Assembly: GCA_026388315.1 (NCBI GenBank) | Contig: JAPLKA010000037.1 | Span: forward strand, 34,259 to 98,258 | Source of the DNA: Pseudomonadota bacterium | GTDB taxonomy: Bacteria > Desulfobacterota > Syntrophorhabdia > Syntrophorhabdales > Syntrophorhabdaceae | DNA: 64,000 bases | Reading direction: 5' to 3' | Shown here: positions 37,907 through 58,267 of the stretch, in pieces | How the letters are laid out: every line of letters begins with the position of its first letter | Position numbering within the stretch: position 1 is the stretch's first letter | Made by a program: the position numbers and the translations under genes | The notes under the pieces: generated by a model | Seen by the model: the letters and a program-made list of their open reading frames with translations, nothing else | Database searches by the model: none | What the model was told of the DNA's origin: nothing

Positions 37907-39113
37907 CCACTATGCCGGGTCACCCCGTTACGGCATGGAATACCGACCCTACTACCTTGCCAGAGAATGGGTACGGCTTGGGCATAAGGTGACGATAACA
38001 GCAGCTTCATTTTCTCATATCCGTACAAATCAGCCAGTACTTTCGCGCGGTCTGACCGAAGAAGTGATTGACGGAATTCATTATGTGTGGCTCAAAACAC
38101 CTGAGTATCATGGTAATGGTGTTGGCCGTGTCCTCAACATAGGAGTCTTTGTTGGACAACTTTATAGGTTTTCCAGCCAGATTATAGAGATGAGCCAGCC
38201 AGATGCCGTGGTTGCATCATCGCCTCATCCCTTTATTATTTTTCCTGCTTACTATCTACGGAAAAAGGCAAGGGCTAAATTAGTTTTCGAGGTACGTGAT
38301 TTATGGCCACTCTCACTGGTAGAGCTTGTGGGGATATCAAAGAGGCATCCGTTCATCATGGCAATGCAGCGTACGGAAGATTTTGCTTATCGTGCAGCGG
38401 ATAAAGTTGTTTCAGTTTTGCCGGGCACAGAGGAACACATGAAGATCCACGGTTTGGTCGATGGGAAGTTTGCATATATCCCGAATGGAATCGACATAAC
38501 TGGATGGGGAAAAGGGATTAATGAGCTTCCAGAAATGCATAAACAGGCACTGGATGTTCTCAGAAGTGAGCGAAAATTCATCGTGGGGTATACAGGTGAG
38601 CACGGTATTGGTAATGCTCTCAATTCACTTGTTGAAGCCTCTAATCTACTGAGGCAAGAGAATGTTGCGTTTGTTCTTGTTGGAAAAGGAATTAAAAAGG
38701 CTTACCTTCAGTCCAAGGTGTCTCGAATGGAATTGCAGTCTGTCACATTCCTTCCGGATATTCCCAAATCGGCGATCCCCTCCCTCCTTGATATGTTTGA
38801 TGTATGTTTTATAGGATGGCAGAACAAGCCCATATATCGGTTTGGAGTAAGTCCTAATAAGCTTATGGACTATATGATGGCGGCAAAACCAGTTATTCAT
38901 TCAACTGGTGCTGTTAATGATGTTGTTGCCGAAAGTGGATGCGGTTTATCTTGTTCGCCAGAGGACCCTGGTATGATTGCTAATGCGGTTATTCAGTTGA
39001 TGTCGTTATCCGAGGAAGATCGTAGGGATATGGGGTTGCGGGGCAGAGAGTATGTTTTGCAAAATCATGACTACAGGACGTTTGCTAAGAAATATTTGGA
39101 TATAATTGGGTGA
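37887..39113 (+). CDS. GT4-family glycosyltransferase, WbuB-like
   Basis: MNILLINHYAGSPRYGMEYRPYYLAREW is the characteristic WbuB-type N-terminus. PNKLMDYMMAAKPVI is also present. Confidence 0.85.
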   Translation: MNILLINHYAGSPRYGMEYRPYYLAREWVRLGHKVTITAASFSHIRTNQPVLSRGLTEEVIDGIHYVWLKTPEYHGNGVGRVLNIGVFVGQLYRFSSQIIEMSQPDAVVASSPHPFIIFPAYYLRKKARAKLVFEVRDLWPLSLVELVGISKRHPFIMAMQRTEDFAYRAADKVVSVLPGTEEHMKIHGLVDGKFAYIPNGIDITGWGKGINELPEMHKQALDVLRSERKFIVGYTGEHGIGNALNSLVEASNLLRQENVAFVLVGKGIKKAYLQSKVSRMELQSVTFLPDIPKSAIPSLLDMFDVCFIGWQNKPIYRFGVSPNKLMDYMMAAKPVIHSTGAVNDVVAESGCGLSCSPEDPGMIANAVIQLMSLSEEDRRDMGLRGREYVLQNHDYRTFAKKYLDIIG

Positions 39114-39381
39114 AACAACGATTGGGGCAATAAAGGAGTTTTATGATATCATCGCTGGAAAACTACTGGACCGCGATTAGCGGCTATTTCAATTCAAAAA
39201 ATAATGTTTTTCTTTTCTGAAAAGGCCAGGCTTCCGTACGGATGGGCACAAAGATGGCAACAAAAAGGCAAGAACTCTCTCAATTATATCTGGGAATTGC
39301 CCTGGTATAGCCCAAACCATCTTGCCCATATCCCCTTGCCGTTAGCAGCTTCCGGAACTTTATTTTGGTAAGAAATTAAAG

Positions 39382-39510
39382 CTGAGTTATCGGGATTCCC
39401 TGATTATCACCGCTGCAACGAACAACCGTTGCTCAGTTTTATATACGGAAGAATTACAGGATGGGCTGGTCATCGAAAACAGCATGCAGGTCATAAACCC
39501 CTTTAAATGA
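39382..39510 (+). pseudogene. C-terminal fragment of a PIN-domain (VapC-like) toxin
   Basis: LSYRDSLIITAATNNRCSVLYTEELQDGLVIENSMQVINPFK* is a typical PIN C-terminus. No N-terminal part is present. Confidence 0.6.
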
Positions 39511-39617
39511 ACAAGTGCACTGTCCCGGTTCCTAACCTTATGAACCCTATAAACTTTTCCATTGTTGTTAATTGCTTAATAATATCAATCACATTACCTA
39601 TGCCTGAGCTCCTGCAT

Positions 39618-39725
39618 ACCCCCAAAAAATGGGGGTCACCACACATGAAACAACATCGAAGTAAATTTGCCCGCAACCCTCTCAGTAATCTCGAACGACC
39701 GTGGGGAGCGGGCGAGAGGAAAAAT
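39618..39725 (+). repeat. family B copy 3, 46 nt upstream of wbpB
   Basis: Hairpin accccc-aaaaaat-gggggt, aagtaaattt, ccctctc (39677-39683) pairing with gagagg (39714-39719), then gggcgagaggaaaaa. Confidence 0.65.
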
Positions 39726-39770
39726 TAAGTTCGAATTTTATAGAGCTAAAATAAACTCAAAGAGGACGAA

Positions 39771-40757
39771 ATGAAAAACTTTGTTTTACTGGGTGCGGCT
39801 GGATTCGTTGCACCACGCCACATGCGGGCAATAAAAGATACGGGTAACAAACTTGTTGCTGCAATGGATAAGCATGATGCGGTTGGAGTCATCGATAACT
39901 ATTTCCCTGAATCTGCTTTTTTTGTCGAGTTTGAGCGTCTTGACAGACATGTCGAAAAGCTGAGGCGCATGGGAGAAGAGAAAAAGGTTCATTATGTTAG
40001 TATAGCTTCTCCGAATTATCTTCATGATGCACATATTCGCTTTGCGCTCCGGGTAGGTGCTGACGCCATCTGCGAAAAGCCCCTTGTTCTAAACCCATGG
40101 AATATTGATGCACTGAAAGAAATTGAGAAAGAATCAGGCAAGAAGGTTAATACAGTTCTTCAGCTACGCCACCACCCTTCCATCATAGCCCTCAAGCAGA
40201 AAGTTGATGCCGTTGCACTTAGCCATTTGTCTTTAGCCTCAAACGCCCCTCGCCCAAAATATGACATTGACCTCACCTATATCACCTCCCGCGGCCGTTG
40301 GTATCTTGTGTCCTGGAAAGGCGATTTAGCAAAATCCGGTGGGTTGGCTACAAACATAGGCGTCCATTTCTTCGACATGCTCCAGTGGATATTCGGGGAT
40401 GTTCAATCAAATATCGTACATATTTCAGAACCCATGAAAGCCGCAGGATTCCTTGAATTGCAGAAGGCAAGAATAAGATGGTTTTTGTCAATAGACAGCA
40501 ATGATCTTCCCGTTTCCGCAAGGGATGCGGGCAAACCAACATATCGTTCAATAACAATTGACCAGGAAGAATTAGAATTCTCTGAAGGCTTTGCAGACCT
40601 CCATACAGTTACTTACCAAGAAATCCTGAAGGGTAATGGTTTTGGTCTGGATGATGTAAAACCTTCAATCGAAATCGCACATGAGATACGGAATGCAAAG
40701 CCAGTAGGACTTAAGGGAGAGTATCACCCGTTTTTGAAAGCCGTGGCTGGTGGATAG
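39771..40757 (+). CDS. wbpB: UDP-GlcNAcA 3-dehydrogenase-like Gfo/Idh/MocA oxidoreductase (WbpB/WlbA type)
   Basis: MKNFVLLGAAGFVAPRHMRAIKDTGN, SPNYLH, ICEKPL, LQLRHH, DLTYITSRGRWY, TNIGVHFFDML and PTYRSITI are colinear with WbpB as I recall it. Confidence 0.75.
   Translation: MKNFVLLGAAGFVAPRHMRAIKDTGNKLVAAMDKHDAVGVIDNYFPESAFFVEFERLDRHVEKLRRMGEEKKVHYVSIASPNYLHDAHIRFALRVGADAICEKPLVLNPWNIDALKEIEKESGKKVNTVLQLRHHPSIIALKQKVDAVALSHLSLASNAPRPKYDIDLTYITSRGRWYLVSWKGDLAKSGGLATNIGVHFFDMLQWIFGDVQSNIVHISEPMKAAGFLELQKARIRWFLSIDSNDLPVSARDAGKPTYRSITIDQEELEFSEGFADLHTVTYQEILKGNGFGLDDVKPSIEIAHEIRNAKPVGLKGEYHPFLKAVAGG
40212..40256 (+). repeat. in-frame 45-nt repeat island in wbpB (encodes VALSHLSLASNAPRP)
   Basis: cttagccatttg and gcccctcgccc are the same module types as those in wbpE at 43101-43254. 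The island interrupts an otherwise WbpB-colinear sequence. Confidence 0.6.
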
Positions 40758-41177
40758 TGGCTGGTGGATAGTGAAGAAATGAAAGATTTTAAAGAATTAG
40801 AGGTTTGGCAGAAAAGCGTGGATTTTGTATTAAATATTTATGAGACTTCGAAAAGCTTTCCCCATGAAGAAATGTTCAGCCTGACCAACCAGATGAGGAG
40901 ATCGGCAGTATCAATACCGTCCAATATTTCAGAGGGATTCTCAAGAAACAGCACTAAAGAATTCATACAGTTTCTCTATATAGCGCTTGGCTCATCAGCA
41001 GAATTAGAAACACAAATTTTAATCTCACATAAATTAGGATATCTCATTGATCCAACTAAACTGATCGATAACCTCACAACAATTAAGAAGATGCTGAATG
41101 CCCTCGTTTCATCATTAAAAGGAAAAATAAAACAGTCATGATTGACCAACCACCAGCCACCAGCCACCAGCCACTAT
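40754..41177 (+). mobile_element. IVS-like cassette: four-helix-bundle gene bracketed by a perfect 14-bp inverted repeat
   Basis: atagtggctggtgg (40754-40767) is the exact reverse complement of ccaccagccactat (41164-41177). Both arms sit inside longer arrays: the left is a 14-nt unit x2, the right is ccaccag x3. Confidence 0.45.
40779..41141 (+). CDS. four-helix-bundle protein (23S rRNA intervening-sequence protein / Avd-like family)
   Basis: ELEVWQKS, FPHEEMFSLTNQMRRSAVSIPSNISEGFSR and YIALGSSAELETQ. Confidence 0.9.
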   Translation: MKDFKELEVWQKSVDFVLNIYETSKSFPHEEMFSLTNQMRRSAVSIPSNISEGFSRNSTKEFIQFLYIALGSSAELETQILISHKLGYLIDPTKLIDNLTTIKKMLNALVSSLKGKIKQS

Positions 41178-41776
41178 ATTTCGTTCATGAAAGCAGCTTC
41201 ATTGATCCCGATGTCGAAATAGGAGAAGGCACGAAGATCTGGCATTTCAGCCACATTCTGAGCGGAGCGAAAATTGGCAATAACTGCATTATTGGCCAAA
41301 ACGTTTGTATAGAACGGGATGTTATCATAGGAAATAGATGTAAGATTCAAAACAACGTTTCAGTATATAAAGGTGTGACACTTAAAGATGAGGTTTTTTG
41401 TGGTCCTTCATGTGTGTTCACAAATGTCTATAACCCGCGTGCATTCATTGAACGAAAGACAGAGTTCCGGCCAACATTAGTGAAAAGAGGCGCCACTATC
41501 GGTGCCAACGCAACAATACTCTGTGGTGCCACTATAGGACGGTACGCCATGATCGGTGCTGGAGCACTCGTCAGATCTGATGTTCCCGATTACGCTATCT
41601 TCGTCGGCGTCCCTGCAAAGCAGGTAGGGTGGGCATGCAAGTGTGGAATGACAATAAAGACGGGCAAGGGGCAATGGGCAATGGGCAAGGCTTCTTCGGA
41701 CCCCTTAGTCTGTAGCTATTGTGGTAATCAGTATTGTATTGACGGTGATAGCCTAACCCCAATAATTGAAAAATAG
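41138..41776 (+). CDS. wbpD: UDP-2-acetamido-3-amino-2,3-dideoxy-glucuronate N-acetyltransferase-like (WbpD/WlbB type, hexapeptide repeat)
   Basis: IWHFSHI, CKIQNNVSVY, VFCGPSCVFTNVYNPRAFIERK, GATIGANATILCG and VGVPAKQVGW. The first 12 codons are encoded by the repeat arm. Confidence 0.75.
   Translation: MIDQPPATSHQPLYFVHESSFIDPDVEIGEGTKIWHFSHILSGAKIGNNCIIGQNVCIERDVIIGNRCKIQNNVSVYKGVTLKDEVFCGPSCVFTNVYNPRAFIERKTEFRPTLVKRGATIGANATILCGATIGRYAMIGAGALVRSDVPDYAIFVGVPAKQVGWACKCGMTIKTGKGQWAMGKASSDPLVCSYCGNQYCIDGDSLTPIIEK
41662..41692 (+). repeat. in-frame G-rich repeat island in the wbpD C-terminal zinc-ribbon loop
   Basis: gggcaaggggcaatgggcaatgggcaagg. Bases 41663-41679 are complementary to 42208-42224 (16 of 17). 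Confidence 0.7.
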
Positions 41777-41808
41777 AAAGCAAGCGGTAGATAATAGACA
41801 AAGGTAAA

Positions 41809-42177
41809 ATGGGAAAAGAAGGGTTTAAGGAGTTGAAGGTTTGGGAAAAAGCTAAAGATTTAGCTGTGGATATCTATAAACTTACGATGCAGGGGGAAAT
41901 AAGTAAAGATTTTGGCTTACGTGACCAGATTCGACGCAGTGCGGTAAGCATCGCAAGTAACATTGCTGAGGGTGATGAACGAGATACGGATAAGGAGTCT
42001 GTCAGATTCTTTTACATTGCTAAAGGATCTCTTGCAGAACTGCAGACACAAATGCAGATTGCCTGTGAAATAGGATATTGCAGTATAAGTATTTACGATG
42101 GAATCGATTTGAAATGCATAGAATTGGGTAAAATGATCGGTAAGCTAATAAAAGCCCGTCAAGAGACGAGGATATAA
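41809..42177 (+). CDS. four-helix-bundle protein (23S rRNA IVS protein / Avd-like family), second copy
   Basis: ELKVWEKA, GLRDQIRRSAVSIASNIAEG and YIAKGSLAELQTQ. Confidence 0.9.
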   Translation: MGKEGFKELKVWEKAKDLAVDIYKLTMQGEISKDFGLRDQIRRSAVSIASNIAEGDERDTDKESVRFFYIAKGSLAELQTQMQIACEIGYCSISIYDGIDLKCIELGKMIGKLIKARQETRI

Positions 42178-42194
42178 ACATGAACTTTATCCTT

Positions 42195-42224
42195 CCTATA
42201 GCCTATAGCCCATTGCCCCATGCC
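42195..42224 (+). repeat. C-rich repeat arm (cctatag x2 + cccattgcccc) downstream of the second four-helix-bundle gene
   Basis: A 23-nt identity with 54404-54426, and complementarity to 41663-41679. Confidence 0.7.
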
Positions 42225-42234
42225 AGGTGAATAA

Positions 42235-43503
42235 ATGAAAATTCCCATGCTCGATCTTAAACTCGAATACGAATACATGAAAGCTGATATTGATGCTGCC
42301 ATTGCCCGTTGCCTTGAGCATCAGCATTGGATTCTTGGTCCTGAAGTAAAGGAATTTGAAGACAAAGTTTCAGATTATCTTGGTGTTAAATACTGCATAG
42401 GTACTTCATCGGGCACCGACGCTCTTGTCCTTGCCCTCCGCGCTCTAGCAATTAAAACGAAAGGCCAGGAATATTTTGACCGCTCCGATTTGATCATCAC
42501 CACTCCATTTACTTTTACTGCCACTGGCGATGCTATCCTCCGCGCTGGCGCCACCCCCTTTTTCGTCGACATCGACCCCATCACCTATAACCTCGATCCA
42601 AATCAAATTAGAGAGTATTTAACTCAAAACTCAAAACTCAAAACTCAAAACTCCACCCACGTAGTGGGTGTCGTGCCGGTTCATTTATATGGTCAATCTT
42701 GCCAGGTGGATAAAATCATGAGTATCGCCAGCGAGCATAGCCTATTTGTTGTTGAAGACTGTGCCCAGGCGTTTGGGGCTGCCCGGGGAGGCAAGAGGCT
42801 CGGGGCAATAGGCGATGCAGGCGCTTTCAGTTTTTTTCCAAGTAAGAACCTCGGTGGGTTCGGTGATGCAGGGATGGTATCAACCAATGATGATGAACTT
42901 GCCGATCTTATCCGTATGCTCATCAAACATGGTGGTAAAGACAAATATAATGTTGACCACGTCGGCTACAATGCTCGTATGGATACCCTACAAGCAGCGG
43001 TCCTCCTTGCAAAGCTCCCCTACATAGATGAATTCAACTCCCGCCGCCAACGTATTGCTTCTATATATAATGAAGGTCTAAAGGACCTTCCCGGTCTTAT
43101 CTTGCCCTTAGCCCTTAGCCATTTGCCACAGGCCGGGGTTGATTCACCCATAGCCCATAGCCCATCACCTGCTTTCGCTCATGTTTATCACCAATACACG
43201 CTCCGCGTCCTCAGCGGTTCTTCATCTCTTGCCCCTCGCCCATCGCCCCTTGCCAATAGTTTTTCATCCACCAACAGGGACACGCTCCAGCGCTACCTGA
43301 AAGACGCTGGCATCGATAGCATGGTTTACTACCCTGTGCCTTTACATAAGATGAAGGTTTTTGGCGGAAGATGCATGGTTTATGACGAATTAATGGAAGC
43401 CGAAAAAGGAGCGCAGGAGGTCTTGAGTTTGCCTATTGAACCCTTACAAAGCGAAGATGTTATTCTCCATATAGCGGAGACCACTAAAGAGTTTTTCATA
43501 TAA
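42235..43503 (+). CDS. wbpE: UDP-2-acetamido-2-deoxy-3-oxo-glucuronate aminotransferase-like (WbpE/WlbC type, DegT family)
   Basis: ILGPEVKEFE, SGTDAL, VDIDPITYNLDP, VEDCAQAFGA, FSFFPSKNLGGFGDAG, GYNARMDTLQAAVL and HVYHQYTLRV. It carries three in-frame repeat islands. Confidence 0.75.
   Translation: MKIPMLDLKLEYEYMKADIDAAIARCLEHQHWILGPEVKEFEDKVSDYLGVKYCIGTSSGTDALVLALRALAIKTKGQEYFDRSDLIITTPFTFTATGDAILRAGATPFFVDIDPITYNLDPNQIREYLTQNSKLKTQNSTHVVGVVPVHLYGQSCQVDKIMSIASEHSLFVVEDCAQAFGAARGGKRLGAIGDAGAFSFFPSKNLGGFGDAGMVSTNDDELADLIRMLIKHGGKDKYNVDHVGYNARMDTLQAAVLLAKLPYIDEFNSRRQRIASIYNEGLKDLPGLILPLALSHLPQAGVDSPIAHSPSPAFAHVYHQYTLRVLSGSSSLAPRPSPLANSFSSTNRDTLQRYLKDAGIDSMVYYPVPLHKMKVFGGRCMVYDELMEAEKGAQEVLSLPIEPLQSEDVILHIAETTKEFFI
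42621..42653 (+). repeat. AACTCAA heptamer x4.5, in-frame in wbpE
   Basis: aactcaaaactcaaaactcaaaactcaaaactc encodes NSKLKTQNS. Confidence 0.9.
43101..43172 (+). repeat. mosaic repeat island in wbpE (cttagcc, catagcc types)
   Basis: cttgcccttagcccttagccatttgcc ... cacccatagcccatagcccatcacc encodes LALSHLPQAGVDSPIAHSPSP. Confidence 0.8.
43228..43254 (+). repeat. repeat island in wbpE (cctcgcc, catcgcc types)
   Basis: cttgcccctcgcccatcgccccttgcc encodes LAPRPSPLA, between the conserved HQYTLRV and NRD blocks. Confidence 0.8.
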
Positions 43504-43634
43504 TATGCAACCATACAAGCTATGGACAAACAGTATTTAAAAGAAATAAATAGTTTTTAATTTTATAAAAAAATCTGCTCGCTATGAGCCATCAGCTATT
43601 TCTGCAAGCCTGACCCCGATGGTATCCCGTTTAT

Positions 43635-46046
43635 ATGGAATTATCCATAAAACATAGAAGGACTCAAATTTATAGGTTTATCTGTGTGGCTGCTTGCCTT
43701 TTTCTTAACTCAATATTTTTATTAAGTTGTTCCACAGCCAAAGGAGCAATTAATGAAAATGCTTTTGATGAGCAGAATCTTGTTATGAATGGAGATGTAG
43801 AGGTTTTTGATAAAGGGGAACCTATCGGTTGGAAATATAATTCAGCATTTCCTCTTCAGAATCAGGAAAATTGTTCGGTTGGTTCCCCCGGCTTTCAGAG
43901 CGACCATGCGCTGATTATGTCCCTGAGAGGGTTGAATGCTCAAGCCGGATGGAATGGACTCCTGCACAACATTAAACCCCATGCAAAATATGTCCTTTCC
44001 TTTTGGTACCGTCTTCCCGAGAAGGGCGAAATGGAGGTAAATGTTTTTGGGAAACGTCTATCTGTAACGAAGATGTTCAGATATAATCCAATGCACTGGC
44101 TTCGTTATTCAGCGATAGTTGATTCGGGTGATACTGTCGGGGATGCCAAAATTGTTTTTGTGCCACTAAAGGGAACCGGACCATTCATGTTCTGGGTAGA
44201 TCAGGTTGAACTTTACGAAGGTGAATCTGCAATTGGTAAGAATTGTGCCCGTTTGGAGTACCAATATTATAATGTGGCATATGTTTCGCAGGATGTTGTA
44301 TCACCGCTTCCTTTTGCCTTTGAATGGACTTTTGATGTTGACAAAAAGCCAGGAGAGATTCAATACGTTGTTGAGCTTCCATCTGAAGTGGAGCTTGTGA
44401 ATGTTGCGCTGGGAAGGATGTGCAAGTGGCCCAAAGATGGATGGAAGGGAACGTGGACACGTCCGGATTACTCCAGTAAAGTGGAAACGCAACAAATAAC
44501 CGTGAATGACAAACCATACATCAGAGTCATCGCTCATGTTCCGTATGTCAAAGGCGACGAGAAACAATTTACGAATTACGTTGTTCCCGTGGGTATTCGT
44601 GATTACTGGGGGGAGACTCCGGGACGTTATTCGGGAATGGTTTCCATGACTATGTATGTACGAGCCAGGGCGTCAAAAGGATCATTCCCATTTTACTATT
44701 ATGCAAAGTGGGATAACGGTCAGGAAAAACTGAAAAAGCTTAACATGGAAATCACCGATATAAAAAAGGTGAAACAACCGGAGAAATTGCTGCTTATCTC
44801 GGATGTCCAGATGCAGGCAGGGGATAAAAACCCTGCGTTAGGAGAAGATTTCAGACATATCGGTCTTAACGGTATAGGCAACCTCGATATGCAAGGCGGC
44901 AATGAAACCCTCAAAGGGAAAATAGAAGCTTTACGAAAAAACGGGATGAAATACTTCAGCAACTGGATGAACATCGCTTCATATGGCGCTTCCGATGAAA
45001 AAGCAAAGGCTATGGACATAAACGGAAAAAGAACAGGTGAAGCTGGATGGTGCTTATCATACCGTGGACCTGACTGGACCAAAAAGATGGTGGAATATAA
45101 GAAGAAGCTGGGGACGGGGATCAATTTTTTTGCGTTTGATGATGCAAGCCCCGGTATGTGTTATTGTGATAAATGTAAGCACACCTTTGAGGAATTTTTT
45201 AGAAAGCATTCAAAGTTGCCGTACATTGACCCTGCAATATTTATGAAACAAGGCTGGGGAGGCAATGCAGAATACAAAATATTGTGGAATGACTTTGTTT
45301 TGTGGCACTATGGTAAAACCGCTCAGGATATGAAGGATGAGCTTGTTCAGCATGCAAAAAGAAAAAAGCTGAATGCTGATATTTTGTTTGGTGTGAGCTC
45401 GTGGCTTCCCTTTGATAAGGATTTCGCGGCAGAAACCATTAAAGCTTTTGATTTTGACATAAGGCAGACGTACATTAATTGGGCAGAATCCGGGTTTGGA
45501 GGTTCCCCAAAGCTCGTTGGGGATTCTCTCTACCATTCTCAAATGAAACTTGGAAATAATGCTTTACCTCTCGCCCCGACACTATCTCCCGGCCTGACCT
45601 ACATGCATCCCGCATGTGCCCTTGACCCCTATAGCCAAATGAAATACCAGATTATGGAAGCGATGATGGCGCCGAAATTTGCGGGATACTATATATATGA
45701 CGGGAAGGATATTGATCTCGGCGATATGAAATATATGGCAGAAGCAAACGCATTGATGGTTCGGTTTGAGAAAATCATAAGGAATGGGAAGGCGGAAAAG
45801 CCGATCGGGATCGACAGATGGTCCGGCGTTCGTATAAAAACATCAGGGGAAGAAGGATTGGTCCTTGTTTCCGATTACTCAACCTATGAGCCGGTGGGGA
45901 AAGGCATTTCGTTTTCTTCGCCAATATTATCAGGGCATACGTTAATTGATGTCGAAACAAATGAAACGATAAAGCCCATAAATGGCATATATAGCGTAAA
46001 AATAAGTGAAACCCGTGCCCGGTTATTCCATTTCGGCAAACCCTGA
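43635..46046 (+). CDS. exported lipoprotein with CBM4/9-like N-terminal domain and glycosidase-like (GHL-type TIM barrel) C-terminal region
   Basis: Lipobox FLLSC|S. N-terminal NLVMNGDVE...WVDQVELYEG jelly-roll pattern. FFAFDDASPGMCYCDKCKHTFEEFF resembles the CxCxxC motif of the next large gene. The function call is weak. Confidence 0.5.
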   Translation: MELSIKHRRTQIYRFICVAACLFLNSIFLLSCSTAKGAINENAFDEQNLVMNGDVEVFDKGEPIGWKYNSAFPLQNQENCSVGSPGFQSDHALIMSLRGLNAQAGWNGLLHNIKPHAKYVLSFWYRLPEKGEMEVNVFGKRLSVTKMFRYNPMHWLRYSAIVDSGDTVGDAKIVFVPLKGTGPFMFWVDQVELYEGESAIGKNCARLEYQYYNVAYVSQDVVSPLPFAFEWTFDVDKKPGEIQYVVELPSEVELVNVALGRMCKWPKDGWKGTWTRPDYSSKVETQQITVNDKPYIRVIAHVPYVKGDEKQFTNYVVPVGIRDYWGETPGRYSGMVSMTMYVRARASKGSFPFYYYAKWDNGQEKLKKLNMEITDIKKVKQPEKLLLISDVQMQAGDKNPALGEDFRHIGLNGIGNLDMQGGNETLKGKIEALRKNGMKYFSNWMNIASYGASDEKAKAMDINGKRTGEAGWCLSYRGPDWTKKMVEYKKKLGTGINFFAFDDASPGMCYCDKCKHTFEEFFRKHSKLPYIDPAIFMKQGWGGNAEYKILWNDFVLWHYGKTAQDMKDELVQHAKRKKLNADILFGVSSWLPFDKDFAAETIKAFDFDIRQTYINWAESGFGGSPKLVGDSLYHSQMKLGNNALPLAPTLSPGLTYMHPACALDPYSQMKYQIMEAMMAPKFAGYYIYDGKDIDLGDMKYMAEANALMVRFEKIIRNGKAEKPIGIDRWSGVRIKTSGEEGLVLVSDYSTYEPVGKGISFSSPILSGHTLIDVETNETIKPINGIYSVKISETRARLFHFGKP

Positions 46047-46286: not shown

Positions 46287-47465
46287 ATGCACAAAGATTA
46301 TAAAGCCAATATTAAACATTATCTCGACCCGGAAAGTAGTGTGTTCCTCTTCTGGAAAGGCCGCGTTGCCTTGTATGCCATATTGCGAGCTCTCGGGATC
46401 AAAGAGGGCGATGAGGTTATACTGCCCGCGTTGACCTGTGTGGTTGTGCCTAATGCAATTATGTATATCGGCGCAAAACCCGTATATGTTGATGTTGATC
46501 CACGAACCTACAATATGGACCCCGCCAAGATTGAGGACAAGATTACTAAAAGAACAAAGGTAATCCTGGCCCAGAATACCTTTGGGCTTTCTTCCGACTT
46601 GGATGAAATCTGCGGTGTTGCACGGAAACATGGGCTCCGTGTTGTTGAGGACTGTGCGCACGGCTTTGGTGGTAACTATAAAGGCCGGCCAAACGGAACG
46701 ATTGTAGATGCGGCATTCTTTTCCACCCAGTGGAATAAGCCATTTTCCACTGGGATTGGCGGTTTCGCGGTGACAAGGAATCCAGAGCTTTCCCTGAGGT
46801 TGTCTGAGCTGGAAAAACAGGCCGCCCTCCCCTCTTTTGCCGAGACATTAATGTTGAAAATGCAACTTATTGCAAAGGACTATTTCCTCAACCAGACAAC
46901 ATACTGGACTGCCATAACTACATACCGGTTTTTAAGCCGGCATAACGTTGTAGTTGGGTCTTCGCAAGGCGAGGAACTGAAAAGCCCCCGAATGCCGAAG
47001 GGGTTTCTAAAAGGCCTGTCTGCCATCCAGGCTGCCCGGGGCATAAAAGAACTCAAACGTTTTGACTCGAATCTCAACCACAGAAAAGCGATTGCACAGT
47101 TGTATAAAAACATCCTCGGGGACCTGGGTATCGAAGTACCGTTTGAGCCTGATTATGCGGAGCATATCTTTACAAAGTTTCCCCTTTTGGTGAAAGATCG
47201 GGAGAAGTTTCTCGCAGACGCGGGAAAAAGCAAGATCGAGATTGGAGACTGGTTTCTATCTCCTATCCACCCGGTTACAGATGATGTCCATCGCTGGCAT
47301 TATCATTATGGCGAAAACCCCATTGCGGAAAAACTCAGTGCGCATCTTGTAAACCTGCACACGCATACAAAGATAGACAAGTATTATGTGGAAAAAATTG
47401 AGAGCTTTTTAAGAAGAAATCGGAATAATATCTTTGAATCCAGCGAACAATGCCTGAATTATTAG
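46287..47465 (+). CDS. DegT/DnrJ/EryC1/StrS-family aminotransferase
   Basis: FLFWKGRVALYAILRALGIKEGDEVILPALTC, VYVDVDPRTYNMDP and VEDCAHGFGG. Confidence 0.8.
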   Translation: MHKDYKANIKHYLDPESSVFLFWKGRVALYAILRALGIKEGDEVILPALTCVVVPNAIMYIGAKPVYVDVDPRTYNMDPAKIEDKITKRTKVILAQNTFGLSSDLDEICGVARKHGLRVVEDCAHGFGGNYKGRPNGTIVDAAFFSTQWNKPFSTGIGGFAVTRNPELSLRLSELEKQAALPSFAETLMLKMQLIAKDYFLNQTTYWTAITTYRFLSRHNVVVGSSQGEELKSPRMPKGFLKGLSAIQAARGIKELKRFDSNLNHRKAIAQLYKNILGDLGIEVPFEPDYAEHIFTKFPLLVKDREKFLADAGKSKIEIGDWFLSPIHPVTDDVHRWHYHYGENPIAEKLSAHLVNLHTHTKIDKYYVEKIESFLRRNRNNIFESSEQCLNY

Positions 47466-52573: not shown

Positions 52574-52615
52574 TTCAATATCTGCGCCCTTAGGCAAGTA
52601 TTGGATAAATAGCTT

Positions 52616-55710
<3,095 letters not shown>

Positions 55711-55711
<1 letters not shown>

Positions 55712-55727
55712 TTGAGTAATTGAGTGA
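55711..55727. repeat. left arm of a perfect 17-bp inverted repeat (partner 57427-57443)
   Basis: attgagtaattgagtga is the exact reverse complement of tcactcaattactcaat at 57427-57443. Confidence 0.9.
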
Positions 55728-55784
55728 ATAAAAGCAAATATAATTCTGTGAGATATTATCAAAAAAGTTGAGAGCTGAAAGCTA

Positions 55785-58043
55785 ATGGTTAATTGCTATA
55801 TTTCAGAGTGGATTGATAAAATTATCCAGTACGGTATTCTGGCCGTGTGGGTTTTTCTCCCCCTTGCCTTTGGCTCTGTACATGTATGGGCCTATGTGTC
55901 GGCGGAGATTGCTGTATGGGTGCTGGTGGGATTGTCAGCTATCGGCTCAATGGTAAGAGCGCAGAGCGCAGGGCGCAGGGCGCAGGGCGCAAAAAGTATA
56001 CACACGCAGCGCGAAAGTGAATATTTCACCTTTCACCTTTCACCTTTCACCTTTCGCAATTTCTTCACCTGTCCTTTGCATATCTTCATGTTCATCGGGC
56101 TTGTGCTTGTGTTTATGCAAATCGTCCCCTTACCTTTACAGAAAATAAAGTTGCTTTCCCCGGAGGCCTTTGCATCCTATAAACGGGTATTTGATATTAT
56201 AGGCGGAAATATCCCTGAATGGATTCCATTGAGTCTGTTTCCCTATGCCACAAGGGTTGAGTGGTTTAAACTCCTCGCGTGTGTTGCCCTTTTTGAACTT
56301 GTCTTCTACAAGGTTACCGAAAGAAAAGATTTGCAGAGGCTCATCCTGGTCTGGGTTGTGATGGGAATATTTCAGAGTTTTTACGGCCTGCTGCAATCGA
56401 TTGACGCCGTTAAGGGTATCTGGTGGTGGAAAGACACTTTTGCTCAGGATCAATCAATTGGTACGTTTATCTATCGTAACCATTTCGGGACATATATGGC
56501 GATGCTGGTCCCGCTCTTTATCGGATTATTCTTCAGTGAAATAAACGGCGCCAGTCGTAAACTACGGCAAATACGCGAGGATATATCAAGGGATCAATTA
56601 ATTAAAACCTTGAGCGATATTTTGACAAAGACCATTCTTACAGGCCTTGTTGTTGTTTTTGTTGTAGTTGGTTTTGTTCTTAGCGGTTCACGCGGCGGAA
56701 TCATGGCATGTGCATCTGCATTTATCATTACCTCCGTGTTTTTGTGTTTCAGAAAAGATACAAGACGGTATGGTTTTGCCCTTTTGATCCTCTTCGGAAT
56801 GGTTGTTGCTTACAACCTCTATCTCACATTCGACCGAACTGTGGAGCGATTTTCATCTTCATCATCGGATGTGCAGGGCAGGATTGAATTTACAAAACAT
56901 GCATGGGAGATGTCGGAGAAGTTTCCGATAACCGGCAGTGGCTGGGGTACATTTGAGGAGTTATACAGACGTTATAAGCCGCCAACATCATGGAACAAAG
57001 CAGTTGACCATGCCCATAACGACTGGGTGGAGTTGCTTACAGAGACTGGGTGGGGAGGACCGGCCATTGCGCTCATAGCGTTCATTGTGTTCATCGTCAT
57101 TGTTTTTAAGAAATGGATGGAACAGGCGAACAGGCATTCACGGTGGTCAAAATGGGTAGGGTTCGGTTGTATAGTGGGTGTTATAACCCCGCTTATCCAT
57201 GCAACGGGCGACTTTGTATTACGCTGCCCGGCGGTTACTATGACATGGTTCGGGTTGATGGCAGTGACGTGGAATGTCGTTCATCTGAGAGAAGCTGTTC
57301 AAGGTTCAAGGTTCAAGGTTCAAGGTTCAAAGCAGGGAGCAGAAGCAGCGCATGGCGTAGAGCGCATGGCGCATGGCGCAACCACCAATCACTCAGTTAG
57401 TCAATCACTTAATCACTCTTCACCCATCACTCAATTACTCAATCACTCGATTACCATTATCTTGCTCATCGTGTTTGTAGCGTTTTATGCCTGGTGGGGA
57501 TGGTCGGTCATGAAGCATGGGATTGCACAGGCGTATGTGCCGACTGAAATAAATTCAACAATAAAAACCGAAAGGGTAATGGCAATTGACAAATTGCTGT
57601 ATGCATTAAATATGGAACCGGATAATGCAGAGTTATGGTTCAGGCTTGCAGAGGCTACTTCGATATTGCCGGACAAAACAGAACTTGACATGATAGATGG
57701 ATGGGTAAAAAAGAAAAAGATAGACATACATGGCGACAGGAATAACCTTGCCCTTTATGCAAATGCATTTCTCAGAGAGGCAATCACGAGGAATCCAACC
57801 AATCCGAAGCCTTTTGCCTATTTCGGTTGGATATATGGCTATTACGGAAGGTATGATTTTGCAGAAAGAGCTTTGTCCATGTCGATCTATTTAGACCCTT
57901 ACAATCCGGAGTGGTATTATCTGACAGGACTAATTGAGTATAACATGGGACTTACAGACATTGCGAAAACATTCTTCAAAATGGCAACAGAGATTGATCC
58001 GGAGTATAAGCGGAAAACAGTAATTGAGCAAGTAAGTGAGTGA
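55785..58043 (+). CDS. O-antigen ligase (Wzy_C) family membrane protein with C-terminal TPR domain and two in-frame repeat islands
   Basis: Multi-TM. SGSRGGIMACASAF, DHAHNDWVELLTETGWGG (Wzy_C signature). C-terminal TPR-like AELWFRLAEA, YFGWIYGYYGRYDFAERA and YYLTGLIEYNMG. Confidence 0.75.
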   Translation: MVNCYISEWIDKIIQYGILAVWVFLPLAFGSVHVWAYVSAEIAVWVLVGLSAIGSMVRAQSAGRRAQGAKSIHTQRESEYFTFHLSPFTFRNFFTCPLHIFMFIGLVLVFMQIVPLPLQKIKLLSPEAFASYKRVFDIIGGNIPEWIPLSLFPYATRVEWFKLLACVALFELVFYKVTERKDLQRLILVWVVMGIFQSFYGLLQSIDAVKGIWWWKDTFAQDQSIGTFIYRNHFGTYMAMLVPLFIGLFFSEINGASRKLRQIREDISRDQLIKTLSDILTKTILTGLVVVFVVVGFVLSGSRGGIMACASAFIITSVFLCFRKDTRRYGFALLILFGMVVAYNLYLTFDRTVERFSSSSSDVQGRIEFTKHAWEMSEKFPITGSGWGTFEELYRRYKPPTSWNKAVDHAHNDWVELLTETGWGGPAIALIAFIVFIVIVFKKWMEQANRHSRWSKWVGFGCIVGVITPLIHATGDFVLRCPAVTMTWFGLMAVTWNVVHLREAVQGSRFKVQGSKQGAEAAHGVERMAHGATTNHSVSQSLNHSSPITQLLNHSITIILLIVFVAFYAWWGWSVMKHGIAQAYVPTEINSTIKTERVMAIDKLLYALNMEPDNAELWFRLAEATSILPDKTELDMIDGWVKKKKIDIHGDRNNLALYANAFLREAITRNPTNPKPFAYFGWIYGYYGRYDFAERALSMSIYLDPYNPEWYYLTGLIEYNMGLTDIAKTFFKMATEIDPEYKRKTVIEQVSE
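55957..56056 (+). repeat. repeat island (GCGCAGG x4 ... CACCTTT x4) in the ligase gene
   Basis: Seen directly. It encodes RAQSAGRRAQGAKS..FTFHLSPFTF. Confidence 0.9.
57298..57450 (+). repeat. repeat island (GGTTCAA x4, GCGCATG, AATCACT, ATCACCC types) in the ligase gene
   Basis: Seen directly. It encodes QGSRFKVQGSKQGAEAAHGVERMAHGATTNHSVSQSLNHSSPITQLLNHS. Confidence 0.9.
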
Positions 58044-58267
58044 ATGTCATTCAACCCATAGGTTGGCAAATAACCAGAATCAGAGCAACAGCGAGGACAG
58101 TGATTATAGTCCCCCGCTCCCACTGGTGGAGTTTTACAGTATGCTTCCAGCCACAGTTACTGCAGTGGAATACCCTTCTCCCAAAATACTTTAGAAACCA
58201 TTCTTTAAAGCCCACCCAATTCTCATTGATTGCCAGTATTCATATATCTATTCCTGCTTTGCCCATC

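Follow-up and report, generated by a model that had tools for sequence, protein, structure and literature searches.

Two genes for small four-helix-bundle (HB) proteins, HB1 and HB2, lie between wbpB, wbpD and wbpE in a 64-kb stretch of Syntrophorhabdaceae DNA (contig JAPLKA010000037.1; the whole stretch is called the window below), each bracketed by a G-rich and a C-rich array of tandem heptamers that are complementary to each other. We found that an HB gene between complementary heptamer arrays is a general architecture that has apparently gone unreported, and that the unit of the arms varies between cassettes, is complementary within each cassette and tracks the HB subfamily. HB1 and HB2 are probably members of a widespread class of small selfish cassettes that resemble the intervening sequences (IVSs) of rRNA and land in operons as they do in rRNA. 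A first-pass annotation, made from the letters of the window, had described them as IVS-like cassettes in an mRNA operon; this is right in substance, with the tandem heptamer arms, the most distinctive feature, being underplayed.

Cassette 1 and the ends of wbpB and wbpD

All four arms of the two HB genes are tandem heptamer arrays, with period 7 according to the repeat finder TRF. Around HB1, positions 40743-40775 pair with 41142-41174 over 33 nt (85% complementary), containing the perfect 14-bp inverted repeat noted in the first pass, whose coordinates, 40754-40767 (ATAGTGGCTGGTGG) and 41164-41177 (CCACCAGCCACTAT), were verified. The left arm is a period-14 alternation of GGCTGGT and GGATAGT, both the minimum free energy (MFE) and the centroid RNA folds pair the right arm with 40743-40775, and the arm unit is confined to the two arms, occurring nowhere else in the window.

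The first-pass reading of the gene ends at this cassette was also correct. The left arm encodes the last four codons and the TAG of wbpB (40743-40757: gcc gtg gct ggt gga TAG, AVAGG*), and wbpD starts at 41138 with an ATG that shares bases with the HB1 stop (ATGA), the first 13 codons of the gene (MIDQPPATSHQPL) traversing the right arm. WbpB orthologues terminate in ...GEYHP[FL]LK followed by 3-9 variable residues, whereas the window protein ends with V-A-G-G-stop, encoded by the array; WbpD orthologues from HB-less loci start with M-x(1-6)-YFVHESS, and the window protein starts with MIDQPPATSHQPL-YFVHESS, the nine extra N-terminal residues being right arm 1 translated in frame. Compared with their orthologues, the termini of wbpB and wbpD therefore indicate that cassette 1 (~40743-41177) displaced the native wbpB stop and wbpD start along with the spacer between them. 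A 13-nt direct repeat around cassette 1 was considered as a target-site duplication and rejected, being conserved wbpB/wbpD coding sequence that is also present in the related locus L007 (loci other than the window carry the prefix L), which lacks the cassette.

In the place occupied by HB1 in the window, L007 (1635-2831) and L009 (7180-8370) have a UDP-GlcNAc 2-epimerase-like gene between wbpB and wbpD. This gene of the closest relatives itself has in-frame arrays, such as (CCCAGTG)x4.3 in L007.

Stem 2 and the wbpD-wbpE junction

Around HB2, positions 41663-41686 pair with 42201-42224 over 24 nt (88% complementary), within which the 16/17 sub-stretch reported earlier is correct, and the MFE and centroid folds pair the right arm with 41663-41686. 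The left arm (GGGCAAGGGGCAATGGGCAATGGGCAAGG) has four GGG tracts, left arm 1 having GG runs only; the right arm, the composition of which is also given as (CCTATAG)x2.3 plus CCCATTGCCCC, stops 10 nt short of the wbpE ATG. GGGCAAN, the arm family of HB2, has additional C-rich copies in wbpE, and arm pair 2 is therefore somewhat less exclusive than pair 1.

Left arm 2 encodes KGQWAMGK, in frame, within the C-terminal Cys-x-Cys...Cys-x-x-Cys loop of WbpD, ~90 nt upstream of the wbpD stop, and the 30 codons that follow it are native WbpD. In array-free orthologues this loop has 9-11 residues (it is short and without an array in L013 and L014), and L007, L009, L010 and L012 have other arrays at the same site. 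The comparison with wbpBDE relatives, for which we used ten related operons, defined the boundaries of cassette 1 and showed that left arm 2 is not an edge, as had been assumed, but an in-frame array of the WbpD loop that is found in relatives too and pairs without an HB gene in L010. The donation of stop and start codons, proposed for both cassettes, likewise holds for cassette 1 and fails for cassette 2, where the wbpD stop and the wbpE start are native.

Four states of the wbpD-wbpE junction were found. An intact HB gene is present in the window, L007 and L009; the HB proteins of the latter two are 35-61% identical to HB2 (61% in L009), with WbpD 70-75% identical and the aligned part of WbpE 92% (L007) and 60% (L009) identical, and the arm units, complementary within each locus, are GGGCAAT/ATTGCCC in the window, GTAAGGA/TCCTTAC in L007 and AAGGCTA/TAGCCTT in L009. 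A decayed HB fragment directly follows wbpD in the cultured type strain Syntrophorhabdus aromaticivorans UI (L008, 7670-7930); the WbpD loop of this strain retains a remnant array, and a T/C-rich tract of partial complementarity precedes the next gene. L010 has a stem without HB, its left array in the WbpD loop and its right array in a 75-nt spacer, and L011, L013, L014 and L016 have neither HB nor arrays. In L009 a hairpin lacking HB also separates wbpB from the epimerase gene, and the left arm of this hairpin supplies the wbpB stop. In two Bacteroidota loci, L053 (3535-4515) and L059 (3651-4640), a stop-less HB open reading frame (ORF) is fused in frame to WbpD via the right-arm array, with the linker ...NHQSPITSH-YFAHE..., and HB pseudogenes decaying in place are present in L008, L043 and L028.

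TRF also located in-frame heptamer arrays within wbpE of the window, at 42621-42653, 43095-43165 and 43225-43260. Arrays occupy homologous positions in wbpE of the window (42621-42653 and 43095-43260), L009 (10012-10584) and L010 (3150-3673), at offsets of ~386-440 and ~870-1020 nt, with units that differ among the three relatives; comparison of these sequences indicates that the array sites are conserved and the array sequence is turning over.

Arm pairing compared with chance

Pairing was scored by local alignment of the 150-nt upstream flank with the reverse complement of the 150-nt downstream flank, a measure that replaced RNAduplex of 120-nt flanks with shuffles, in which long weak duplexes dominated as noise. 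HB1 scored 41 and HB2 33, and the maximum over 3828 same-span random placements in the window was 26. The inverted flanks reported in the first pass are real and highly non-random.

An array-saturated genome with a small vocabulary of units might place two complementary arrays around each HB gene by coincidence, as could be argued from the ~40 arrays that TRF found in the 64-kb window, many of them within ORFs, against two HB genes, and from the C-rich wbpE copies of the HB2 arm family. None of the 3828 placements, however, attained the score of HB1 or HB2; in the array-dense region 52600-58100 the inverted score reached at most 22 and same-sense similarity up to 58, the arrays there being alike in the same sense and never inverted at the spacing of HB arms; and the HB1 unit is unique to its arms, while the bracketing recurs at 56 of 66 unrelated loci. 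Random placements, unit uniqueness and recurrence led us to reject chance pairing, the probability of which is negligible.

A search of the window for HB-less array hairpins with short loops found none. Apart from the HB arms, just two complementary array pairs occur in the window, 54744-54771/55700-55727 and 55707-55727/57427-57447, in which (AATCACTT)n faces (AGTAATTG)n at distances of 928 and 1699 nt with the C-rich arm first. No HB-like ORF lies between these arrays of 54744-57447, and a minus-strand ORF of 122 codons between the inverted arrays at 54744 and 55700, considered as a candidate HB gene, was not HB-like. In-frame heptamer or octamer arrays occur by the dozens in genes at 52616-55711, 55785-58043 and 42235-43503, the array-bearing genes being those of a GH42-like protein, a Wzy_C O-antigen-ligase-like protein and wbpE; these arrays yield low-complexity peptides, for example SPITNYELPITNYQSPITHHPSPITNYE and HSSQFTVHSSQ, and most are without a complementary partner. 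A 75-nt inverted repeat of a different kind (46139-46213/47542-47616, 92% complementary, no heptamer arrays) brackets a DegT-family aminotransferase gene (46287-47465) that lies beside a second DegT gene in the same polysaccharide cluster.

HB genes in other genomes

The metagenome set comprised 80 independent HB loci, from which 66 full-length HB genes with both flanks were scored; the proteins of the metagenome and viral samples were 35-62% identical to HB1, those of the metagenome sample alone 45-62%, and HB start codons were assigned heuristically. The earlier suggestion that HB ORFs between inverted ends recur in mRNA operons was borne out, since inverted flanks (score of at least 24, an arbitrary threshold, the contrast with the controls persisting at every threshold tried) were present at 85% of the 66 genes, compared with 1.4% of 1237 random placements (Mann-Whitney p=4e-36) and 6.2% of 958 non-HB genes that served as a gene-boundary control. 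Many of the high-scoring non-HB genes sit between two elements, as in an ATP synthase operon, and no enrichment of same-sense flank similarity was found for the metagenomic HB genes. On viral contigs, 22 of 31 HB genes (71%) had inverted arms. Across the 886 kb of the 80 genome loci, the density of period-6-9 arrays within 120 nt of HB gene ends was ~13 times that of the remaining sequence. The first-pass annotation had named arrays without the gene as an observation that would count against it, and this holds in part: arrays and empty stems are common without HB.

Bracketed examples were found in Verrucomicrobia, Bacteroidota and Aminicenantes, where all 17 HB genes of wbp loci (17/17) are on the operon strand. 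The HB copy of the Nostoc punctiforme plasmid pNPUN01 has arms of (AGGAGTC)n/(GACTCCT)n, and plasmid homologues of HB1 come overwhelmingly from heterocystous cyanobacteria (Nostoc, 22 records; Calothrix, 4; and Trichormus, Aulosira and Anabaena). These plasmid homologues belong mostly to the Nostocales, and it was in such taxa that the heptamer repeats known as short tandemly repeated repetitive (STRR) sequences were originally described. Literature searches, the coverage of which was incomplete, returned no paper linking PF05635, TIGR02436, 23S_rRNA_IVP or S23p to flanking heptamer arrays.

The arms range from 14 to 122 nt in length (median 31 nt); 65 of them have period 7 and 26 have period 8. 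The left arm ends ~23 nt before the HB start codon, and the right arm starts ~7 nt past the stop. Of 56 cassettes, 53 have a G-rich 5' arm. An inverted pair has its G-rich arm 5' on both strands, however, so that arm polarity says nothing about HB orientation; a G-rich arm upstream of HB was accordingly rejected as an orientation signal, being strand-symmetric, which leaves co-orientation with neighbours as the only informative signal. Upstream neighbours share the orientation of HB in 53 of 62 cases and downstream neighbours in 53 of 66, with gaps of ~65 nt; of the 56 cassettes, 14 have an arm that overlaps the upstream ORF and 11 one that overlaps the downstream ORF. The density of stop trinucleotides is 0.093 in left arms compared with 0.045, which fits their terminating of the upstream ORF.

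At L128 (497-2008), L141 (1400-1957) and L115 (2977-4293), ordinary genes, including those of ATP synthase subunits, are preceded by a C-rich array and followed by a G-rich one with the same unit, so that one operon holds a row of several elements of the same type, as described for the atp operon of Xanthomonas.

The cassette as the unit of inheritance

Two pairs of loci share DNA similarity over the HB gene and its arms only, with no similarity beyond: L108 and L110 (82% identity over 497 nt) and L113 and L117 (78% over 470 nt). A 12-member HB subfamily (66-80% protein identity) has AAGGGGTC-type arms in every member and no flank similarity by tblastx. Arm 6-mers are shared by 98% of HB pairs with at least 65% amino acid identity compared with 7-22% of distant pairs, and the covariation of HB identity and arm unit was matched in 0 of 500 permutations. 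Homology that is limited to the cassette in otherwise unrelated contexts, together with a patchy occurrence at one junction in relatives, thus supports the proposed mobility. The cassettes have the terminal inverted repeats of an insertion sequence (IS) or a miniature inverted-repeat transposable element (MITE), but their arms are tandem arrays and their only ORF is HB. The cassette may spread by being copied into sites that already bear arms of the same type, through recombination between arrays; alternatively, some activity involving the HB protein, a homologue of the nucleic-acid-binding pentamer Avd (PMC10053308), could be responsible.

Genes and proteins of the window locus

Features of the locus are listed in Table 1. 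Full-length matches to PF05635 scored 133 bits for HB1 and 124 for HB2, above the curated cutoff of 33.8, and those to TIGR02436 ('four helix bundle protein') 132 and 122 bits (cutoff 24). In an alignment of 13 sequences the family core R-x3-S-x3-N-x2-E-G is present in both HBs, with Q38, R41, S45, E52, G53, R56, S72 and E75 invariant and N49 nearly so. HB1 and HB2 are 43% identical and so do not stem from a recent duplication; among solved structures, HB1 is closest to XCC0516 of Xanthomonas campestris (PDB 2GSC, E=1.2e-21). The best matches of the window WbpB are Syntrophorhabdaceae orthologues from an uncultured metagenome-assembled genome (MAG; 88% identity) and from S. aromaticivorans UI (82%), and alignment of the WbpD termini showed an array-derived N-terminal extension and the loop insert.

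Table 1. Coordinates of the genes and arms of the wbpB-wbpE locus in the window
Feature	Position	Strand	Evidence or remark
wbpB-like GFO/IDH/MocA oxidoreductase	39771..40757	+	Pfam PF01408/PF02894
Left arm of cassette 1, G-rich array (GTGGCTGGTGGATA)x2.2	40743..40775	+	TRF; inverted repeat
HB1, four-helix-bundle protein gene, 120 aa	40779..41141	+	PF05635 E=4.9e-39; TIGR02436; NF008911
wbpD-like hexapeptide N-acetyltransferase	41138..41776	+	Pfam Hexapep; orthologues 65-77% identical
Right arm of cassette 1, C-rich array (ACCAGCC)x4.3	41142..41177	+	Encodes WbpD residues 2-13
Left arm of stem 2, G-rich array (GGGCAAG/GGGCAAT)x4.1	41662..41690	+	TRF; inside wbpD
HB2, four-helix-bundle protein gene, 122 aa	41809..42177	+	PF05635 E=2.6e-36; NF008912; TIGR02436
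Right arm of stem 2, C-rich array (CCTATAG)x2.3 then CCCATTGCCCCATGCC	42195..42224	+	TRF; inverted repeat
wbpE-like DegT aminotransferase	42235..43503	+	PF01041 E=1.9e-102

Six independent Logan assemblies of public read sets carry the locus with 100% identity, so it is no assembly artefact, and no presence/absence variation was found among the HB2-bearing Logan contigs, all of which are identical to the window. An Rfam scan of the window found no rRNA or other RNA family, and no excess of promoters or terminators was found across 39100-43700. All six Logan contigs stop at or a few bases from the (AACTCAA)x4.7 array at 42621-42653; heptamer arrays evidently break short-read assemblies and may conceal HB cassettes in MAGs.

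Proposed behaviour of the cassettes and alternative explanations

Members of the proposed class would consist of a G-rich array of 7-mers (sometimes 8-mers), a PF05635 ORF of ~120 codons and a complementary C-rich array, and the 23S rRNA IVSs with a PF05635 ORF would be one special landing site of the same class. In the window, wbpB-HB1-wbpD-HB2-wbpE would form a single transcript in which each arm pair folds into a 24-33-bp stem that loops out the HB cistron. A ribosome ending wbpB inside left arm 1 would melt the stem, allowing translation of HB1, which starts 4 nt past the arm, and wbpD could then be translated by coupling, its ATG overlapping the HB1 stop at the foot of right arm 1. With termination in the left arm and coupling to wbpD, insertion of cassette 1 would therefore be nearly transparent to the operon, and such transparency would explain the tolerance of cassettes even in ATP synthase and chaperonin operons. 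The stems have a length sufficient for RNase III, and by analogy with IVS stems the duplex is likely to be a substrate of this enzyme, which would separate the cistrons.

Several observations weigh against this reading. Mismatches in the arms of the G:U type (66) and the A:C type (72) are equally frequent in the sense transcript and so give no sign of selection on a sense-RNA stem; the pattern better fits arms that were born complementary and then decayed, or a role at the DNA level. RNase III processing and co-transcription of the operon are inferred. Arrays far outnumber HB genes and many are unpaired in coding regions, so that the arrays may be the primary phenomenon. The arrays of ~15% of the sampled HB genes are non-complementary or absent, and so are those of several distant Bacteroidota HBs (L052, L055 and L072) and of the distant family members L060 and L068. 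No conserved boundary motif was found among the cassettes, and no transposase, integrase or target-site duplication was found.

Some of these observations would suit an origin in which the stems came first, complementary heptamer hairpins being host or selfish junction elements like the repetitive extragenic palindromic (REP) sequences or bacterial interspersed mosaic elements (BIMEs), with a role in mRNA stabilisation or segmental decay, and HB a secondary cargo of the loops. HB-less pairs do occur at the same junctions (the WbpD loop and spacer of L010, the wbpB-epimerase junction of L009), Xanthomonas has 70 convergent GGGAATC pairs in operons (PMC4692102), the ATP synthase genes of L128 are separated by arrays of one type, and arrays greatly outnumber HB genes in the window. 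Such an origin, however, leaves unexplained both the preference of PF05635 for the loops (85% of HB genes compared with 6% of other genes) and the covariation of HB subfamily with arm unit; empty stems can equally be read as deletion derivatives, like the MITEs of transposons, and the HB pseudogenes of L008, L043 and L028 are decaying in place. We consider it unlikely. A similarly low probability attaches to the possibility that the arms act in DNA, as a hairpin or cruciform substrate of recombination or replication comparable to attC or the ends of IS200/IS605, with the RNA stem as a by-product. The equal numbers of G:U and A:C mismatches, the symmetric placement of the G-rich arm 5' on both strands (53/56) and the presence of cassettes on viral contigs and conjugative plasmids agree with it, but neither the window nor the sampled loci have a recombinase gene linked to the cassettes, the co-orientation with ~80-85% of neighbours is not predicted by a symmetric DNA site, and processing at the RNA level has been demonstrated for the rRNA IVS homologues (PMC4990558). 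Finally, weak matches of HB2 to bAvd PF22296 (22 bits) and NF033474 (28 bits) might suggest Avd accessory genes of a diversity-generating retroelement (DGR), with the repeats as its template and variable regions (TR/VR). These scores are far under the cutoffs (40 and 80 bits), the HB neighbours are sugar-pathway wbp genes with no reverse transcriptase among them, and the repeats are inverted tandem heptamers with no direct TR/VR pair, which makes this explanation highly improbable.

For the selfish IVS-like cassettes that we favour, one extension can be offered tentatively. It is possible that the HB proteins are trans-acting specificity factors of a repeat system like that of REPINs and their RAYT proteins (compared below), each subfamily recognising its own heptamer unit. 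Given the typical 4-5 units per array, one unit might be bound per pentamer subunit, and HB would drive or permit the spread of both HB cassettes and HB-less array hairpins.

Implications

PF05635/TIGR02436 proteins are very common, structurally solved and related to Avd, and have no assigned function outside DGRs. To our knowledge, the heptamer arrays (STRR of cyanobacteria, GGGAATC of Xanthomonas, TAACTGA of Beggiatoaceae) have been catalogued for decades with their origin unexplained. The association of HB genes with arrays joins these two puzzles and the ORF-bearing rRNA IVSs into one testable class of elements, and, if HB proteins were specificity factors, STRR, GGGAATC repeats, ORF-bearing IVSs and the in-frame heptamer inserts of Syntrophorhabdaceae would have a common origin. 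The cassettes also call for care in annotation, as they change where neighbouring genes start and stop, through stops encoded by arrays, added N-terminal residues and even in-frame HB-WbpD fusions, and HB genes in cas or polysaccharide operons should not be taken as functional partners. Clear examples exist in tractable organisms, namely N. punctiforme pNPUN01 and X. campestris XCC0516.

Comparison with known systems

The 23S rRNA IVSs of Leptospira, Coxiella burnetii and Haemophilus carry an S23p/PF05635 ORF, and their stem is cut by RNase III (PMC4990558). Like these IVSs, the cassettes have terminal inverted repeats (the IVS stem is ~28 bp) around a small ORF of this protein family, are patchily distributed and have been proposed to be mobile, but the host is the mRNA operon wbpB/wbpD/wbpE instead of helix 25/45 of 23S rRNA, and the window arms are tandem heptamer arrays that run into neighbouring coding sequences.

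In Xanthomonas, Rehm et al. described GGGAATC arrays with 70 convergent pairs and loops of 20-70 nt, treating them as G-quadruplex repeats with no link to the HB family (PMC4692102); convergent pairs lie between groES-groEL, atpA-atpG, atpD-atpC and gltB-gltD, and a four-unit array, (GGGAATC)4, 6 nt after bccP, overlaps the annotated start of XCC0516 (PMC4692102 supplement). XCC0516 is itself an HB protein, the solved structure nearest to HB1. The window arrays resemble the Xanthomonas GGGAATC, Nostoc GGGGA[C/T]T and STRR repeats in being tandem heptamers at gene junctions, often over stops, and the Xanthomonas convergent pairs in having the G-rich arm first; most of the Xanthomonas pairs, however, have no gene in the loop, and the HB1 arms have no G-tracts. 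Heptamer hairpins also extend helices of the cyanobacterial RNase P RNA and tRNA-Leu intron.

Zhang et al. found 18 HB (23S_rRNA_IVP) genes wedged in cas operons, for example between cmr3 and cmr2, and read this as a functional association with CRISPR, flanking repeats not being considered (PMC3936711); as in the window, the operon that HB interrupts is unrelated to it. The Avd protein of DGRs is basic, forms pentamers and binds both nucleic acid and reverse transcriptase (PMC10053308). HB1 and HB2 share its fold and family, but no reverse transcriptase or TR/VR lies beside them and the Avd models score below cutoff. An integron cassette has a single 3' attC, whereas the arms here stand on both sides of the ORF; no integrase-like ORF was noticed in the operon, in which no dedicated integron test was made.

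REP sequences and REPINs are short palindromes scattered through the spacers between operon genes, and each RAYT gene lies between inverted copies of its cognate REP repeat. RAYT is a Y1 transposase of the IS200/IS605 type, whereas HB is a four-helix bundle with no known catalysis; HB is usually multi-copy, and its repeats are tandem arrays and not single palindromes. In combining HB-less hairpins with HB cassettes of matching arm types, the present elements nevertheless find their closest functional analogy in the REPIN/RAYT system.

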